From: Escherichia coli
GTDB taxonomy: Bacteria; Pseudomonadota; Gammaproteobacteria; Enterobacterales; Enterobacteriaceae
DNA length: 64,000 bases
Direction: 5' to 3' (one strand)
Assembly (NCBI RefSeq): GCF_045037415.1
Contig: NZ_CP173438.1
The notes beneath the pieces are model-generated. The model was not told the origin of the DNA. It searched no databases and saw only the letters and a list, made by a program, of their open reading frames with translations. Shown in pieces: positions 4,519 through 45,713 of this stretch. Within the stretch, counting starts at the first letter, position 1; every line of letters starts with the position of its first letter. Position numbers and translations under genes: made by a program.

Positions 4519-6144
4519 ATGACAGTATTCAACAAATTTGTTAAAAGTTTTAAATCTCATTGGTTGTTGTATCTTTGTGTTATTATTTTTGGTATTACGA
4601 ACTTAGTCGCTTCTTCCGGAGCGCATATGGTTCAGCGATTGCTGTTCTTCGTTCTGACCATCCTGGTTGTTAAACGTATACCATCCCTTCCGCTTCGCCT
4701 GCTTATTGCCGCACCATTTGTGTTACTGACTGCGGCAGATATGAGTATTAGCCTCTATTCATGGTGTATCTTTGGTACAACTTTCAATGATGGATTTGCG
4801 ATTAGTGTGCTGCAGAGTGATCCGGATGAAGTTGTCAAAATGCTGGGAATGTATATCCCTTATCTATGTGCTTTTGCCTTTTTATCCCTTCTTTTTTTGG
4901 CAGTAATAATAAAATATGATGTTTCCTTGCCGACAAAAAAAGTGACAGGAATATTATTGCTGATTGTCATTTCGGGCAGTTTATTTTCCGCTTGTCAATT
5001 TGCTTATAAAGATGCAAAAAATAAAGAGGCGTTCAGTCCATATATACTAGCGTCGCGATTTGCTACCTATACGCCGTTTTTCAATCTCAATTATTTTGCT
5101 TTAGCAGCGAAAGAGCATCAAAGATTACTCTCAATTGCAAACACGGTGCCGTATTTTCAATTATCAGTCAGGGATACAGGTATTGATACCTACGTGTTGA
5201 TTGTGGGGGAGTCTGTACGTGTCGACAATATGTCTTTGTATGGATATACACACTCTACGACACCGCAAGTCGAAGCACAAAGAAAGCAGATCAAACTGTT
5301 TAATCAAGCAATAAGCGGTGCACCTTACACTGCGCTGTCGGTTCCCCTTTCTTTAACTGCTGATTCTGTTTTGAGTCATGACATTCATAATTATCCGGAC
5401 AACATTATTAATATGGCTAATCAAGCAGGATTTCAGACTTTCTGGCTAAGCTCGCAATCCGCTTTTCGGCAGAATGGTACAGCAGTTACCAGTATCGCCA
5501 TGCGCGCCATGGAAACAGTCTATGTCAGAGGATTTGATGAATTGTTGTTGCCGCATTTATCGCAAGCGTTACAGCAAAAGACGCAGCAAAAGAAACTGAT
5601 TGTTCTTCATTTAAATGGAAGCCATGAACCGGCTTGTAGCGCCTATCCGCAATCCAGCGCTGTGTTTCAACCGCAGGACGATCAGGATGCCTGCTATGAC
5701 AACTCCATTCATTACACAGATAGTTTGCTAGGTCAGGTTTTTGAATTATTAAAAGATCGCCGCGCCTCGGTCATGTATTTTGCCGACCACGGCCTGGAAC
5801 GCGACCCTACGAAGAAGAACGTCTATTTTCATGGAGGCAGGGAGGCTAGCCAGCAGGCATATCATGTCCCTATGTTTATCTGGTATAGCCCCGTTCTTGG
5901 GGATGGCGTGGATCGCACAACGGAAAACAACATCTTTTCGACAGCTTACAATAATTACATTATTAATGCGTGGATGGGGGTAACAAAGCCGGAACAGCCG
6001 CAAACGCTTGAGGAAGTGATTGCACACTATAAAGGAGACTCGCGGGTTGTGGATGCAAACCATGATGTTTTCGATTATGTGATGCTCAGAAAGGAGTTTA
6101 CAGAGGATAATCAAGGTAACCCCACCCCTGAAGGGCAGGGTTGA
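4519..6144 (+). CDS. yhbX: putative phosphoethanolamine transferase / sulfatase-domain inner membrane protein YhbX (EptA/OpgE-like)
   Basis: ORF 4486..6144 (TTG); first ATG at 4519 gives 541 aa MTVFNKFVKSFKSHWLLYL...; N-terminal hydrophobic segments then soluble sulfatase-like domain; markedly AT-rich. Confidence 0.85.
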   Translation: MTVFNKFVKSFKSHWLLYLCVIIFGITNLVASSGAHMVQRLLFFVLTILVVKRIPSLPLRLLIAAPFVLLTAADMSISLYSWCIFGTTFNDGFAISVLQSDPDEVVKMLGMYIPYLCAFAFLSLLFLAVIIKYDVSLPTKKVTGILLLIVISGSLFSACQFAYKDAKNKEAFSPYILASRFATYTPFFNLNYFALAAKEHQRLLSIANTVPYFQLSVRDTGIDTYVLIVGESVRVDNMSLYGYTHSTTPQVEAQRKQIKLFNQAISGAPYTALSVPLSLTADSVLSHDIHNYPDNIINMANQAGFQTFWLSSQSAFRQNGTAVTSIAMRAMETVYVRGFDELLLPHLSQALQQKTQQKKLIVLHLNGSHEPACSAYPQSSAVFQPQDDQDACYDNSIHYTDSLLGQVFELLKDRRASVMYFADHGLERDPTKKNVYFHGGREASQQAYHVPMFIWYSPVLGDGVDRTTENNIFSTAYNNYIINAWMGVTKPEQPQTLEEVIAHYKGDSRVVDANHDVFDYVMLRKEFTEDNQGNPTPEGQG

Positions 6145-6151
6145 TGTCGAA

Positions 6152-7510
<1,359 letters not shown>

Positions 7511-24855: not shown

Positions 24856-25380
24856 GTGTTGGATAAACTGCGTTCCCGTATTGTGCATTTGGGGCCATCT
24901 CTGTTGAGTGTACCGGTAAAACTGACGCCATTTGCGCTAAAACGCCAGGTTCTTGAGCAGGTCTTAAGCTGGCAATTCCGTCAGGCGCTGGATGATGGCG
25001 AGCTGGAGTTTCTTGAAGGTCGCTGGTTAAGTATTCATGTGCGTGATATTGACCTGCAATGGTTTACCTCGGTGGTGAATGGCAAACTGGTCGTTAGCCA
25101 GAACGCGCAAGCTGATGTGAGTTTTAGTGCCGACGCCAGCGATCTGCTGATGATTGCGGCGCGTAAACAAGATCCGGATACGCTCTTCTTCCAGCGTCGG
25201 CTGGTGATTGAAGGCGATACGGAGCTGGGGCTGTATGTGAAAAACCTGATGGACGCCATTGAACTGGAGCAAATGCCGAAAGCCTTACGCATGATGCTGC
25301 TGCAACTGGCGGATTTTGTTGAGGCGGGAATGAAAACCGCGCCTGAAACCAAACAGACATCGGTAGGTGAACCATGCTAA
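24856..25380 (+). CDS. ubiT: SCP2-domain lipid-binding protein UbiT (formerly YhbT)
   Basis: ORF 24832..25380; GTG at 24856 after GGGAG SD gives 174 aa (M)LDKLRSRIVHLGPSLLSVPVKLTPF... Confidence 0.85.
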   Translation: MLDKLRSRIVHLGPSLLSVPVKLTPFALKRQVLEQVLSWQFRQALDDGELEFLEGRWLSIHVRDIDLQWFTSVVNGKLVVSQNAQADVSFSADASDLLMIAARKQDPDTLFFQRRLVIEGDTELGLYVKNLMDAIELEQMPKALRMMLLQLADFVEAGMKTAPETKQTSVGEPC

Positions 25381-25877
25381 TTCGAGTAGAAATTCCCATT
25401 GATGCGCCGGGTATTGATGCCCTGCTGCGTCGTTCATTCGAAAGTGATGCGGAAGCGAAGCTGGTTCACGATCTGCGTGAAGATGGCTTTCTGACGCTGG
25501 GGCTGGTGGCGACAGATGACGAAGGTCAGGTCATTGGCTATGTGGCTTTTAGTCCGGTTGATGTGCAGGGCGAAGACCTGCAATGGGTCGGCATGGCACC
25601 GCTGGCGGTTGATGAAAAATACCGTGGACAGGGGCTGGCACGCCAACTGGTCTATGAAGGACTCGATTCGCTTAATGAGTTCGGCTATGCCGCAGTGGTG
25701 ACGCTGGGCGATCCGGCGCTGTACAGCCGTTTCGGCTTTGAACTGGCGGCGCATCACGATCTGCATTGCCGCTGGCCGGGCACTGAAAGCGCCTTCCAGG
25801 TACATCGTTTAGCGGATGACGCGCTGAACGGCGTAACTGGTCTGGTCGAGTATCACGAGCATTTCAATCGCTTTTAA
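25374..25877 (+). CDS. yhbS: GNAT-family N-acetyltransferase YhbS
   Basis: 167 aa [39 protein letters not shown]...; overlaps ubiT stop by 7 nt. Confidence 0.88.
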
Positions 25878-26166
25878 TCTCCGGGGTTTGCAGGCTGCTC
25901 AACAGTTCTGCAAACCCTGCGCCTTCCGTTACCAGACGCTCTTTTTGCCGTTTAGTCAGTTGTTTAACGCGATATTCCGCTCGTAGTGCCAGCGAACGGT
26001 CGCCCACTGGCGCGGAAAACGCCAGCGTTAGTTCTCCTTTCCCTCGCAGTGCTTTCGCCCCTTTGCCGCTTTGGTGCTGCTGATAGCGGCGTTCGACATC
26101 CGTGGTGATCCCGGTATAAAGCTTATTGTCGGCGGTACGGATCAAGTAAAGAAACCAGGGTGTCAT
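25864..26166 (-). CDS. yhbQ: GIY-YIG domain protein YhbQ (UPF0213)
   Basis: 100 aa [43 protein letters not shown]... Confidence 0.88.
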
Positions 26167-26216
26167 CGTCTGCGTCGCATGTTAAGGTCAGGCCCACAGT
26201 ATAAAAGAGAACAGCA

Positions 26217-26639
26217 ATGGAAACACTCACCGCCATCAGCCGTTGGCTGGCAAAACAACATGTTGTCACCTGGTGTGTGCAGCAGGAAGGGGAACTGTGG
26301 TGCGCCAATGCCTTTTATCTTTTTGATGCGCAGAAAGTCGCCTTCTACATTTTGACGGAAGAAAAAACGCGTCATGCGCAGATGAGCGGGCCGCAGGCGG
26401 CAATTGCCGGAACGGTAAACGGTCAGCCGAAAACGGTAGCGTTAATTCGCGGCGTGCAGTTTAAAGGTGAGATCCGCAGACTGGAAGGCGAGGAAAGCGA
26501 CCTCGCACGCAAGGCGTACAATCGTCGCTTTCCGGTTGCCAGAATGCTGTCGGCCCCGGTATGGGAAATCCGGCTCGATGAAATCAAATTCACCGACAAC
26601 ACGCTGGGCTTTGGTAAAAAAATGATTTGGCTACGTAAC

Positions 26640-26660
<21 letters not shown>
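26217..26660 (+). CDS. yhbP: UPF0306 protein YhbP (FMN-binding split-barrel-like)
   Basis: 147 aa [40 protein letters not shown]... Confidence 0.85.
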
Positions 26661-27195
<535 letters not shown>

Positions 27196-27196
27196 T

Positions 27197-27246
<50 letters not shown>

Positions 27247-27275
27247 TGGGGAGCGCAAGGCAGACAATTCTGTAA

Positions 27276-27921
<646 letters not shown>

Positions 27922-27993
27922 TTATTCCCAAGAATTGATAGTGAGCGTAATATTCACGCGCTCAATTATCATAACTTATTCCTGGGGAATGCT

Positions 27994-29034
27994 ATGACTG
28001 GTCAGTCTTCATCTCAGGCGGCAACGCCCATTCAGTGGTGGAAACCCGCGCTTTTCTTTCTCGTTGTCATTGCCGGTCTCTGGTATGTGAAATGGCAACC
28101 TTACTACGGCAAAGCGTTTACTGCTGCCGAAACCCACAGTATCGGTAAATCTATCCTTGCGCAGGCGGATGCTAATCCGTGGCAGGCGGCGTTGGATTAC
28201 GCGATGATCTATTTCCTCGCGGTATGGAAAGCGGCGGTGCTGGGGGTGATCCTCGGTTCGTTGATTCAGGTACTGATCCCGCGTGACTGGTTGTTGCGTA
28301 CGCTTGGGCAATCGCGCTTTCGCGGCACGCTGCTGGGAACGCTGTTTTCGCTGCCGGGTATGATGTGTACCTGCTGTGCGGCTCCGGTCGCGGCGGGAAT
28401 GCGTCGCCAACAGGTGTCGATGGGCGGTGCGCTGGCATTCTGGATGGGGAATCCGTTGTTAAACCCGGCGACGCTGGTGTTTATGGGGTTCGTCCTCGGC
28501 TGGGGTTTTGCGGCGATTCGTCTGGTGGCGGGGCTGGTGATGGTGTTGCTGATTGCGACGCTGGTGCAAAAATGGGTGCGTGAAACACCGCAAACGCAGG
28601 CACCGGTCGAAATTGATATACCGGAAGCACAGGGAGGATTTTTTAGCCGCTGGGGCAGGGCGCTATGGACGCTTTTCTGGAGTACGATCCCGGTTTACAT
28701 CCTTGCAGTACTGGTGTTGGGTGCCGCTCGCGTCTGGTTATTCCCCCATGCCGATGGTGCTGTCGATAACAGCCTGATGTGGGTGGTGGCGATGGCGGTG
28801 GCAGGATGCTTGTTTGTCATTCCCACGGCAGCAGAAATTCCGATTGTACAAACGATGATGCTGGCAGGTATGGGAACTGCTCCGGCGCTGGCATTGTTGA
28901 TGACGCTCCCGGCGGTGAGTTTGCCGTCACTGATTATGCTGCGCAAAGCGTTCCCGGCGAAAGCCTTATGGCTGACGGGGGCGATGGTGGCAGTGTCTGG
29001 TGTGATTGTCGGCGGGCTGGCGCTGTTAGTTTGA
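27994..29034 (+). CDS. yraQ: inner-membrane permease YraQ
   Basis: 346 aa hydrophobic ORF MTGQSSSQAATPIQWWKPALFFLVVIAGLWYVKW... Confidence 0.88.
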   Translation: MTGQSSSQAATPIQWWKPALFFLVVIAGLWYVKWQPYYGKAFTAAETHSIGKSILAQADANPWQAALDYAMIYFLAVWKAAVLGVILGSLIQVLIPRDWLLRTLGQSRFRGTLLGTLFSLPGMMCTCCAAPVAAGMRRQQVSMGGALAFWMGNPLLNPATLVFMGFVLGWGFAAIRLVAGLVMVLLIATLVQKWVRETPQTQAPVEIDIPEAQGGFFSRWGRALWTLFWSTIPVYILAVLVLGAARVWLFPHADGAVDNSLMWVVAMAVAGCLFVIPTAAEIPIVQTMMLAGMGTAPALALLMTLPAVSLPSLIMLRKAFPAKALWLTGAMVAVSGVIVGGLALLV

Positions 29035-30341: not shown

Positions 30342-30737
30342 TTATGAGTGGTCATTAAAGGCATCCTTAATCCACTCAACCTCATTCCCGGTGAAGGCTA
30401 CCACATCGAACCGGCAATCCACAGTATCAAAACTCCCATTATGACGCGCGAGCCACAAACGGGCAGTCTGTAATAATTTGTGTTGTTTGCTGCGGGTCAC
30501 ACTGGCTGCCGCGCCGCCATAAAGCGCAGAGCGGCGGTAACGCACCTCGATAAAAACGGTGGTCCGGCCTTCACGCATTATCAGATCGATCTCGCCGCCA
30601 CGCTCGTTCACGTTAGCGGCGATAAACCGTAGTCCTTTGCCTTCCAGCCAGCGACGCGCTTGTGCTTCCCACGCATCGCCGGTCTGTTTGGTGGTTAACT
30701 GGCGGGGACTACCTGACCTTGTTGGTACTGTAGCCAT
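30342..30737 (-). CDS. yraN: UPF0102 protein YraN
   Basis: 131 aa [57 protein letters not shown]... Confidence 0.9.
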
Positions 30738-44384: not shown

Positions 44385-45194
44385 ATGAGTAATACCGACG
44401 CTTCAGGTGAGAAGCGAGTGACAGGCACCAGCGAGCGACGAGAACAGATCATTCAGCGTCTGCGACAGCAAGGGAGTGTGCAGGTTAACGATCTGTCGGC
44501 ATTGTATGGCGTATCTACTGTGACGATCCGCAACGATCTGGCGTTTCTGGAAAAGCAGGGGATCGCCGTGCGTGCCTATGGTGGCGCGTTGATCTGCGAT
44601 AGCACAACGCCGTCAGTCGAGCCATCAGTGGAAGATAAAAGCGCACTGAACACCGCGATGAAACGCAGCGTTGCGAAAGCTGCCGTTGAGTTGATTCAGC
44701 CTGGTCATCGGGTGATCCTCGACTCCGGGACCACCACTTTTGAGATTGCTCGTCTGATGCGCAAGCACACCGACGTAATTGCGATGACCAACGGTATGAA
44801 CGTGGCTAATGCGTTGCTGGAAGCGGAAGGCGTTGAGCTGCTGATGACCGGGGGGCATTTGCGCCGTCAGTCGCAATCTTTTTACGGTGATCAGGCTGAG
44901 CAATCGCTGCAAAATTACCACTTCGATATGCTGTTTCTTGGTGTAGATGCGATCGATCTGGAGCGTGGCGTCAGCACGCATAATGAAGATGAAGCCCGTT
45001 TAAACCGTCGGATGTGCGAAGTTGCGGAACGGATCATCGTGGTCACCGATTCCAGTAAGTTCAACCGTTCCAGTTTACATAAGATCATTGATACTCAACG
45101 TATCGACATGATCATTGTTGATGAAGGCATTCCTGCGGATAGTCTGGAAGGACTGCGAAAGGCTGGGGTTGAAGTGATTCTGGTCGGGGAATGA
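44385..45194 (+). CDS. agaR: DeoR-family transcriptional repressor of the aga regulon
   Basis: 269 aa [62 protein letters not shown]...; N-terminal HTH. Confidence 0.93.
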
Positions 45195-45199
45195 GAAAG

Positions 45200-45238
45200 G
45201 ATGCCCGCTGGTCAACACCAATGCGTTCGGCGGGCATT
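45200..45238. terminator. inverted repeat ATGCCCGC...GCGGGCAT between convergent agaR and yhaV (putative bidirectional terminator)
   Basis: 8-bp perfect arms with about 21-nt loop. Confidence 0.35.
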
Positions 45239-45248
45239 GTGAACACCA

Positions 45249-45713
45249 TCAATGGTTTTCTTCTGTCTCTTGGGTGAGGCTTTCCCAGTCGGCAGGAGGA
45301 TGTCCTCTTTTTAACATTTTACTGAATACGGTATAGGCATCTGTTTTTTTACCGTAGGTGCGCAGCGTGTTTTCATCGTTCATCCATCCCAGAATGATGA
45401 CTTTCTCTTTTTCACTGTAACGAAAGAAGAGACGATAGCGACCAGCACCAAATTTTACCCGTGACCAGTCTTTATTTTTCCCAGAGCCTAACGACTTGCC
45501 ATGACGGAATGCCGGTGATGATGGATTGACCGTGATATGCTCCTCAATCACTTTATGGACCACCGCCAATAACTTTGTGGCAGCTTTTCTCTGATAATTT
45601 TCAGGATCTTTTCCCTTTAATGCCTCGACTTCGGCAACTAAAGCATCGTAGGTTTCCTGAAAACAGGGATGAGCATATAGCGCCCAACCATTAACCCTTT
45701 GTGGAAAATCCAT
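45249..45713 (-). CDS. yhaV: type II toxin YhaV (ribosome-dependent mRNA endoribonuclease)
   Basis: 154 aa ORF MDFPQRVNGWALYAHPCFQETYDALVAEVEALKGKDPENYQRKAATKLLAVVHKVIEEH... Confidence 0.9.
   Translation of the reverse strand: MDFPQRVNGWALYAHPCFQETYDALVAEVEALKGKDPENYQRKAATKLLAVVHKVIEEHITVNPSSPAFRHGKSLGSGKNKDWSRVKFGAGRYRLFFRYSEKEKVIILGWMNDENTLRTYGKKTDAYTVFSKMLKRGHPPADWESLTQETEENH

Follow-up and report, generated by a model that had tools for sequence, protein, structure and literature searches.

The locus described here lies in a stretch of 64,000 nucleotides of Escherichia coli DNA (the window) and consists of four genes on alternating strands, arranged as two adjacent convergent pairs. The preceding gene, ubiT (yhbT; 24856..25380, plus strand, from the RefSeq annotation and the list of open reading frames), is the first of the ubiT-yhbS unit and overlaps the start of yhbS on the same strand by 7 nt (25374–25380). 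yhbS (25374..25877, plus strand) encodes a GNAT acetyltransferase and shares its last 14 nt (25864..25877) with yhbQ (25864..26166, minus strand), which encodes a GIY-YIG nuclease. A spacer of 50 nt (26167..26216), which separates the start codons of the divergent genes yhbQ and yhbP, is the sole non-coding stretch of the yhbS-yhbO block in the sequence and its annotation. This is followed by yhbP (26217..26660, plus strand; YhbP family, PNPOx-like), which shares 21 nt (26640..26660) with yhbO (26640..27158, minus strand), the gene for a DJ-1/PfpI deglycase. The listed open reading frame of yhbO is longer (26640..27200, minus strand), the RefSeq start being the ATG at 27158. The next plus-strand gene, yraR, occupies 27286..27921 according to RefSeq and to the comparison of loci. 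The extents of the four genes come from the list of open reading frames, RefSeq and domain or family searches, and those of the two overlaps from the same list and the sequence itself. In both pairs each stop codon falls within the reading frame of the partner gene, so that the overlaps are of the tail-to-tail kind.

An earlier note on this DNA had given the two overlaps with these lengths and positions, and they are exact. The same two overlaps are annotated by RefSeq in a 100%-identical E. coli chromosome (where the coordinate of the locus is that of the window minus 4799) and in MG1655, with yhbO at 3298974..3299492 (plus), yhbP at 3299472..3299915 (minus), yhbQ at 3299966..3300268 (plus) and yhbS at 3300255..3300758 (minus); window and MG1655 positions add up to 3326132. 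The locus is present in 5424 of 5426 complete E. coli genomes. Revised stop codons, which the earlier note had considered, do not come into play: the stops are unambiguous in the sequence, so the overlaps stand. YhbS contains a GNAT domain (residues 19–124), YhbQ a GIY-YIG domain (residues 4–76), YhbP matches the NCBIfam YhbP equivalog and the PfpI/DJ-1 match of YhbO spans residues 4–171 of 172. An annotation artefact (through a misassigned stop codon, or through a pseudogene or non-coding frame taken for a gene) can be dismissed with near certainty, given these unambiguous stops, the domain or family matches of all four proteins, the 70–100% identity over 80 loci with stop codons at homologous positions, and the same RefSeq annotation in two strains.

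For comparison, 80 Enterobacteriaceae loci were collected, in which all four proteins have orthologues at 70–100% identity and of which 79 hold both yhbS and yhbQ. These two genes are adjacent in all 79, and strict adjacency of this kind would fit a selected regulatory coupling too. Their overlap measures 14 nt in 76 of the 79 loci and 4 nt in the other three, which are from Citrobacter and each contain a 1-nt insertion. The carboxy-terminus of YhbS, Y-H/S-D/E-H-F-N-R-F, is nearly invariant (F 100%, N 97% and R 100% over 73 loci), and the Phe-Asn codons of yhbS, TT[C/T]-A, give the yhbQ stop codon (TGA or TAA) when read in antisense. The carboxy-terminal tail of YhbQ is located outside the GIY-YIG domain and is variable in both length and sequence.

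The second pair is constructed along the same lines. Wherever yhbO is intact (53 loci), it overlaps yhbP, by 21 nt in 40 of these loci and by 15 nt in the remaining 13, and the codons of the two genes are exactly antisense to one another. The carboxy-terminus of YhbO, E-A-L-R-L-L-G-A, is nearly invariant and falls inside the PfpI profile. A Leu codon of yhbO (TTA or CTA), read in antisense, provides the stop codon of yhbP (TAA or TAG); of the Leu codons at positions −6 and −4 of yhbO, exactly one is TTA or CTA in each of the 53 loci. The conserved core of YhbP stops at GFGKKxxWLR, beyond which there is a variable tail (NSGTEQA in our sequence). In 24 of the 80 loci yhbO has been lost and yhbP kept; where yhbO is absent, the tail is missing as well and yhbP ends directly after WLR. 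In these lineages yraR directly follows yhbP in the same direction, with a gap of 3–42 nt. Position by position, the YhbS and YhbO tails are conserved at 84–100% and those of YhbQ and YhbP at 25–89%; we therefore refer to yhbS and yhbO as the ‘masters’ and to yhbQ and yhbP as the ‘slaves’ of their pairs. Judged from these alignments, both overlaps are old, and the evidence for their age is that from the Enterobacteriaceae, a protein database search with YhbQ aimed at distant taxa having returned relatives of at least 76% identity.

Overlaps of this geometry form a known class. Lillo & Krakauer (2007; PMC2174442) counted 58 convergent coding sequence overlaps in E. coli. Among those of more than 4 nt, the two phases met with most often are the ones of our locus, (123:132) in yhbS/yhbQ and (123:321) in yhbP/yhbO. 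What sets our locus apart from the general class is that two overlaps are adjacent within 0.8 kb, that their lengths are fixed family-wide and that, in a clear asymmetry, one partner of each pair is constrained and the other is not. Within 43 kb around the site, two of the seven convergent junctions overlap, the remaining gaps being 7, 49, 54, 112 and 117 nt; by a rough estimate, two neighbouring overlapping junctions are slightly unusual locally, yet expected a few times per genome. At the level of transcripts, overlap has been described for 276 of 370 convergent E. coli operons (75%), with a mean of 286 nt. The tail-to-tail overlaps are thus real, ordinary and already known, with the class counted and both pairs catalogued.

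Each mRNA must include its own stop codon and hence has a minimum of 14 or 21 nt that are antisense to the partner gene. The earlier note went further, proposing that transcripts from either side extend into the partner gene and that terminators cannot fit between them. The first part is borne out by published data for both pairs. Both yhbO-yhbP and yhbQ-yhbS are themselves entries among the 165 convergent excludons of the ‘excludome’ compiled with ExcludonFinder (Sanmartin et al., NAR 2025; PMC12288877), a list that requires transcription to overlap in 50% or more of 58 RNA-seq data sets of MG1655; it also includes argG-yhbX and yhaV-agaR from the neighbourhood. A Rho region about 370 nt into antisense yhbO points the same way. 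On this literature evidence, the mRNAs of both pairs overlap in vivo. The excludome catalogue is defined by RNA-seq coverage and not by function, and at our locus the coding sequences overlap besides the untranslated regions. The second part of the proposal does not follow, because structures that form 3′ ends can be situated within the coding sequence of the partner. For such pairs terminators must be inside a coding sequence, and of the 116 E. coli genes concerned 23 have a predicted intrinsic terminator (Lillo & Krakauer 2007; PMC2174442). The most stable fold of the window is in fact located inside yhbQ, 5 nt past the yhbS stop codon.

This fold is a hairpin at 25882..25919, GGGTTTGCAG-N14-CTGCAAACCC, identified by folding and by comparison of loci and contained within yhbQ codons ~82–95, beyond the GIY-YIG domain. 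It can be folded on both strands, with energies of −23.6 kcal/mol for the plus-strand RNA and −19.8 kcal/mol for the minus-strand RNA (z-scores of −3.2 and −2.8), and ranks first of 15,990 40-nt windows over the 64 kb. The stem-loop is rich in G and C; on neither strand is it followed by a U-tract, the 3′ flanks being CGCCUUCCGUUA in the plus-strand RNA and GGAGAUUAAAAG in the minus-strand RNA, and the intrinsic-terminator scan makes no call there. From the missing U-tract, canonical intrinsic termination after yhbS appears absent, although the hairpin could still bound the transcript overlap. Its core stem is paired in about 84% of cells over 47 loci, with GC/CG covariation; these pairs were counted for structures that we specified, and the covariation concerns mainly one pair, among related sequences. 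RNAalifold on the 47 aligned junctions returned no consensus structure. G-U and A-C cells at the hairpin are about equally frequent, and for this reason the wobble asymmetry gives no pointer to the strand on which it acts. A strong fold past the yhbS stop codon, at the top-1% level, is present in 39 of the 80 loci, compared with 6.4% at control positions, an enrichment that spans several genera. A REP or other repeat was considered and rejected, since 5409 genomes have just one copy of the 100-nt junction and no repeat is annotated there in MG1655; an Rfam scan of 24600–28100 with E up to 1 gave just two sub-threshold chance matches. We regard the hairpin as a candidate 3′-end-defining or protective stem-loop, or a candidate bidirectional pause element.

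The hairpin shows similarity to two kinds of known 3′-end element. The protective 3′ stem-loops of Dar & Sorek (2018; PMC6061677) are likewise stable, lack a U-tract, are located just past the stop codon and are followed by RNA with more C than G; the yhbS stem-loop differs from them in that it doubles as coding sequence of the opposite gene, and it is known from its sequence, where theirs have mapped 3′ ends. Bidirectional collision terminators (Ju et al. 2019, as described by Wang et al. 2022, bioRxiv 10.1101/2022.10.23.513370) also have a hairpin on both strands at a convergent boundary and do not resemble intrinsic terminators. That class is, in the same description, defined by overlapping SEnd-seq 3′ ends, whereas our hairpin is likened to it by folding, and the mechanism is said there to work best for highly expressed pairs, while the yhb genes are weakly expressed. 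The curated Term-seq lists of Adams et al. (2021) contain no entry between MG1655 positions 3298900 and 3300699, an interval that includes the hairpin, perhaps due to low expression, and for the yhbS direction the same study gives neither a 3′ end nor a Rho region.

At the yhbP/yhbO junction the folds are not significant (z about −1). A weak terminator-like site, CGGCTGGTAACCAGCTG then ATCTTTATCG, was found by the terminator scan on the plus strand at 26698..26724, which is 38 nt past the yhbP stop codon and inside yhbO. It has a 7-bp stem (26698–26714) and a fold z-score of −1.06, and is probably inefficient. The scan as a whole yielded seven sites against 4.1 ± 2.2 in shuffled sequences, which is not significant, and a consensus promoter scan gave counts not above shuffles, with no promoter called near the yhb genes. 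On the minus strand, a run of seven U past the yhbO stop codon stands 7 nt from the nearest stem. A Rho termination region has been published for the plus strand of this segment (Adams et al. 2021, Supplementary file 2), at MG1655 3299102 (minus strand), equivalent to about 27030 in the window. It is located about 370 nt past the yhbP stop codon and ahead of yraR, in the antisense of the 5′ portion of yhbO, and has a Rho score of 4.79 (p 2.7e-9). The score is built on 800-nt windows, by which the site is resolved to hundreds of nucleotides, and the reads per 800 nt are low: 77/20 in untreated cells and 115/143 with BCM. The downstream window of the score takes in yraR on the same strand, so induction of yraR’s own promoter by BCM could contribute to it. 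RNA antisense to the coding sequences at the locus has a C/G ratio of 1.2–2.1.

The explanation that we favour, and consider likely, is that both overlaps are ancient products of compaction, in which the tail and stop codon of one gene are set by the constrained carboxy-terminus of its partner and read-through is ended by Rho, with no dedicated regulation. Each pair contains one functionally constrained carboxy-terminus, HFNRF in YhbS and EALRLLGA in YhbO, and the weakly constrained tail of the partner (YhbQ or YhbP) is the antisense reading of it up to the first antisense stop. The comparative data show that the yhbQ stop is fixed by the Phe-Asn codons of YhbS, and that the yhbP stop is kept through the one yhbO Leu codon held as TTA or CTA. 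Since the coding sequences abut, there is no space for an intergenic terminator, and each mRNA therefore runs, untranslated, into the antisense of its partner. Rho would end this antisense run-on, as the literature indicates for yhbP into antisense yhbO and as we infer for the other three transcripts. The 3′ end of the ubiT-yhbS mRNA would probably be set or protected by the U-tract-less hairpin. With both strands poorly expressed, any reciprocal repression is likely to be slight under the conditions studied.

As reported, the overlaps themselves add little: they are in every E. coli annotation, their class has been counted and both pairs are published as overlapping transcription units. The locus neatly illustrates how the tail and stop codon of one gene are dictated by a constrained carboxy-terminus on the opposite strand, to the point that yhbO is forced to use rare Leu codons (TTA or CTA) for the sake of the yhbP stop. 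The hairpin, being the strongest in 64 kb, hidden in the yhbQ tail and directly past the yhbS stop codon, is a good test case for whether compact convergent junctions routinely carry 3′-end-forming or protective structures within the partner gene.

The compaction account has to be weighed against the reading of the pairs as functional convergent excludons, in which transcription of one gene represses the partner by head-on polymerase collision or by RNase III cleavage of the duplex. We consider this unlikely, and equally so its consequence that YhbS and YhbQ, and YhbP and YhbO, would be expressed in a mutually exclusive manner, for example upon stress induction of yhbO. Comparable mechanisms are established elsewhere, excludon pairs as a class have higher synteny and are enriched in stress genes, and at our locus both pairs are present in the published excludome, the yhbS-yhbQ adjacency and 14-nt overlap are kept in nearly all sampled Enterobacteriaceae and read-through that extends about 370 nt into the antisense of yhbO is on record. 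However, membership of the excludome rests on overlap of coverage, and the authors of ExcludonFinder could not validate convergent pairs by p19 dsRNA capture (PMC12288877). In the Lybecker study, as cited by Toledo-Arana & Lasa (2020; PMC7154746), 0.5% of the dsRNA regions of E. coli are at 3′ regions. Published plasmid deletions of yhbQ or yhbP left the yhbS-dependent phenotype unchanged. The loss of yhbO from loci that retain yhbP argues against a regulatory bond between the two, and the coding constraint of master on slave accounts for the conserved overlap lengths with no need for regulation. Transcriptional interference needs a strong aggressor promoter, which also counts against functional excludons, as do the low read counts at the locus. 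Our literature search found no pair-specific data on reciprocal repression for yhbS/yhbQ or yhbP/yhbO, and we have seen no evidence that the two overlaps form a dedicated regulatory device. If reciprocal regulation were true, YhbQ, a DNA-damage nuclease, would be linked to the sRNA-silencing acetyltransferase YhbS, and the deglycase YhbO to YhbP, which is speculation.

More doubtful still is an arrangement as interleaved noncontiguous operons, with ubiT-yhbS and/or yhbP joined to yraR-yraQ on the plus strand and yhbO joined to yhbQ across yhbP on the minus strand. The plus-strand transcripts would then cross the opposite yhbQ and yhbO, with Rho and the hairpin as conditional gates, for which we see a similarly small chance. 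The strand-alternating genes with almost no spacer between them fit such an arrangement, as do the co-directional yhbP and yraR, 3–42 nt apart, of the lineages in which yhbO is absent; with BCM the plus-strand signal on the yraR side of the Rho region rises from 20 reads to 143, and the architecture has been described and suggested for E. coli too (Toledo-Arana & Lasa 2020, PMC7154746). The Staphylococcus aureus example from the same paper, menE-menC-MW1733-ytkD-MW1731, likewise has an opposite-strand gene amid co-directional ones; at our locus these are yhbO amid yhbP and yraR-yraQ, which adjoin in relatives that do not have yhbO. Unlike in S. aureus, transcription across yhbO is confined to BCM-dependent read-through, that is, it has been observed under Rho inhibition only. 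ExcludonFinder gives just three noncontiguous operons for E. coli, our locus not being among them, and the 127 nt of intergenic DNA upstream of yraR could carry a promoter of its own. The SMRT-Cappable-seq supplements and TERMITe do not mention the yhb genes.

In its most elaborate form, which we judge improbable to much the same degree, the entire 4-kb block of ubiT-yhbS, yhbQ, yhbP, yhbO and yraR-yraQ would be a zipper-like interleaved transcription unit with two conditional gates, the hairpin and Rho inside antisense yhbO, on which the passage of long plus-strand transcripts through the genes of opposite orientation would depend; expression of YhbS, YhbP and YraR would thereby be coupled to the silencing of yhbQ and yhbO, which are genes of stress and DNA damage. 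If true, this would be a noncontiguous-operon or excludon switch lying wholly in coding sequence. In the block, the 3′ ends of the genes overlap, their 5′ ends nearly abut and the strands alternate.

The segment at 24.8–27.95 kb is E. coli chromosome, found in 5424 of 5426 complete genomes and 100% identical in several strains. It carries ubiT (24856–25380, + strand), yhbS (25374–25877, +; GNAT domain, residues 19–124), yhbQ (25864–26166, −; GIY-YIG domain, residues 4–76), yhbP (26217–26660, +; matching the NCBIfam YhbP equivalog), yhbO (26640–27158, −; PfpI/DJ-1 match over residues 4–171 of 172) and yraR (27286–27921, +), in a layout identical to that of MG1655. The genes yhbS, yhbQ, yhbP and yhbO are real. 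The two convergent overlaps described in the earlier note, of 14 nt between yhbS and yhbQ (25864–25877) and of 21 nt between yhbP and yhbO (26640–26660), are exact to the base in the ORF list, RefSeq and MG1655. Only 50 nt of the yhbS–yhbO block are non-coding (26167–26216), serving two divergent starts; a consensus scan called no promoter there. The same-strand overlap of ubiT and yhbS (7 nt, 25374–25380) suggests translational coupling.

Every stop codon was located in 80 orthologous loci from Enterobacteriaceae species, and comparison of these sequences shows that the constraint on both overlaps is one-sided. Of 79 loci, 76 have a yhbS/yhbQ overlap of 14 nt; in the other three, all Citrobacter, a 1-nt insertion moves yhbQ to a frame ending in TTAA, giving a 4-nt overlap. 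The YhbS tail, Y-H/S-D/E-H-F-N-R-F-stop, is almost invariant, and that of YhbQ varies in sequence and length. Read on the opposite strand, the YhbS Phe-Asn codons (TT[C/T]-A) give the yhbQ stop, TGA or TAA, which is therefore immovable while YhbS retains these residues. Four E. coli YhbQ variants (P0079, P0081, P0038 and P0094) are 88–92 amino acids long through internal in-frame deletions within or beside the GIY-YIG domain, with the carboxy-terminal tail and the overlap unaltered.

Every locus with an intact yhbO has a yhbP/yhbO overlap, of 21 nt in 40 cases and 15 nt in 13. Here the almost invariant tail is that of YhbO (E-A-L-R-L-L-G-A-stop), and the YhbP tail differs between loci in both sequence and length. 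A yhbO leucine codon, read in antisense, supplies the yhbP stop (26652–26660, yhbO codons −6 and −4 from the stop). All 53 loci have TTA or CTA at exactly one of these two codons: loci of the 21-nt form at codon −6, those of the 15-nt form at codon −4. The remaining codon is mostly CTG or TTG; among the 21-nt loci, codon −4 is isoleucine (ATT/ATC) in seven and CTT in one. TTA and CTA are rare in E. coli, accounting for about one sixth of leucine codons, and their retention in yhbO suggests selection against a longer YhbP, which in this strain would otherwise continue for about 90 codons to the next in-frame stop. Twenty-four of the 80 loci lack yhbO (C. freundii complex, Kluyvera, Trabulsiella, E. 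albertii and E. whittamii); yhbP then ends directly past WLR, so its overlapping part is a dispensable extension, and yhbO, in turn, is evolutionarily dispensable for its partner. Coding is a sufficient explanation of the conserved overlap geometry, since one-sided constraint accounts for the fixed lengths and a regulatory function is not needed.

As a side observation, yhbO behaves as a nested gene, lying antisense between its neighbours yhbP and yraR (26640–27285). Where it is missing and yraR is retained, yhbP and yraR are co-directional and operon-like, only 3–42 nt apart (loci L006, L012, L008, L009, L014–L016, L019–L023, L029, L031, L070 and L071 of the comparative set). A 7-nt deletion between short TCCGG repeats (L003 and L004, both at about 3990; window ~26690–26700), common to E. 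coli SCPM-O-B-8794 and Escherichia sp. MOD1-EC7003, frameshifts the yhbO 3′ end.

As a class, tail-to-tail overlaps are nothing unusual. In E. coli, Lillo & Krakauer (PMC2174442) found 58 coding overlaps between convergent genes. They had already asked where the terminators of such genes sit, and for 23 of the 116 genes they reported a predicted intrinsic terminator lying within the coding sequence of the partner. Conway et al. found complementary 3′ ends from 276 of 370 convergent operons, with a mean overlap of 286 nt. By RefSeq annotation, two of the seven convergent junctions in the 43 kb around yhbS–yhbO overlap, and that the two are adjacent is curious locally but not anomalous.

It had been claimed that no intrinsic terminator can fit. 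There is indeed no intergenic room, and no canonical terminator was found, but structures can sit within the partner gene, as a hairpin at 25882–25919 does. In the terminator scan, terminator-like sites were no commoner than in shuffles and the best candidate (26698–26724, +) was weak; folds of the yhbP/yhbO junction were unremarkable.

The hairpin, GGGTTTGCAG-N14-CTGCAAACCC plus outer pairs, begins 5 nt past the yhbS stop, inside the yhbQ tail codons, and folds with an energy of −23.6 kcal/mol as plus-strand RNA and −19.8 kcal/mol as minus-strand RNA. It ranks most stable among the 15,990 40-nt windows of the 64 kb (best window −24.3 kcal/mol), where REP elements and obvious terminators fold less stably. 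There is no U-tract on either side. In these features it resembles the hairpins of bidirectional collision terminators as well as protective 3′ stem-loops, and it may belong to one class or to neither. When 47 loci are aligned without gaps, about 84% of core-stem cells are paired, and 76% over the whole hairpin versus at most 51% with the partners slid. One pair is G-C in 23 loci and C-G in 13, its 5′ member being the synonymous third position of a yhbQ threonine codon. Genera that have lost the segment from the YhbQ tail contain another strong stem, ACGAGGCGC...GCGCTTCGT, slightly further in. The best fold just past the yhbS stop is in the top 1% of its locus in 39 of 80 loci (6.4% at control positions) and in the top 5% in 71 of 80 (23% at control positions). 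The loci are related, RNAalifold predicted no structure, and the numbers of G-U and A-C cells do not tell which strand carries the hairpin; the alignment therefore offers only moderate evidence for structural conservation. This exceptional coding-embedded hairpin, right after the yhbS stop, is the one thing worth further study. On the minus strand, the yhbQ stop sits 16–18 nt 3′ of the stem, so 3′-to-5′ trimming to the stem would give a non-stop yhbQ mRNA. Most complete E. coli genomes, K-12 derivatives included, are only 95–96% identical to this strain over the 100-nt junction 25850–25949; the MG1655-like differences preserve the hairpin, for example turning a G-U pair into A-U.

That the overlaps entail antisense transcripts, as also proposed, holds, though it is trivial or already published, in the excludome and in a Rho region antisense to yhbO. 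Table 1 of the ExcludonFinder paper (PMC12288877) includes both yhbO-yhbP and yhbQ-yhbS among its 165 convergent pairs, for which overlapping transcription is seen in 50% or more of 58 MG1655 RNA-seq sets. The Rho termination region of Adams et al. (2021), at MG1655 3299102 (− strand, "antisense yhbO"; Rho score 4.79, p 2.7e-9), has upstream/downstream reads of 77/20 untreated and 115/143 with the Rho inhibitor bicyclomycin, at 800-nt resolution and with a downstream window that takes in yraR. It maps to window ~27030 (+), 370 nt past the yhbP stop, which implies that yhbP transcripts extend far into antisense yhbO before Rho halts them. The curated Term-seq 3′ ends of Adams et al. (2021) include none across the whole yhbO–yhbS block.

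The feature is already known and ordinary, a real observation with a partly supported interpretation, and it is probably explained by compaction with 3′-end formation by Rho or a hairpin. Mutual regulation, as a further step, is unsupported, and a functional excludon is unlikely: the ExcludonFinder authors give no pair-specific function, their dsRNA validation failed for convergent pairs (PMC12288877), and the only quantitative data show low expression from both strands. An interleaved noncontiguous operon is somewhat less likely again. The genes alternate in strand, with divergent starts separated by just 50 nt (yhbQ/yhbP) and 127 nt (yhbO/yraR), the distance from yhbP to yraR is 3–42 nt wherever yhbO is missing, and bicyclomycin raises the signal towards yraR, but the locus is not among the three reported for E. 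coli (ExcludonFinder, PMC12288877). Gene coordinates are concordant between the ORF list and RefSeq, and an annotation artefact is hardly conceivable.

Two other convergent junctions in the window are also on the excludome list: yhbX/argG, with a 7-nt gap (1345/1353 in L001, a 100%-identical E. coli chromosome; window ~6144–6152), and agaR/yhaV, with a 54-nt gap (L001 40395/40450, window ~45194–45249). Same-strand coding overlaps occur between lpoA and yraN (43 nt; L001 25896–25938, window ~30695–30737) and between yrbN and deaD (8 nt; L001 13473–13480, window ~18272–18279).
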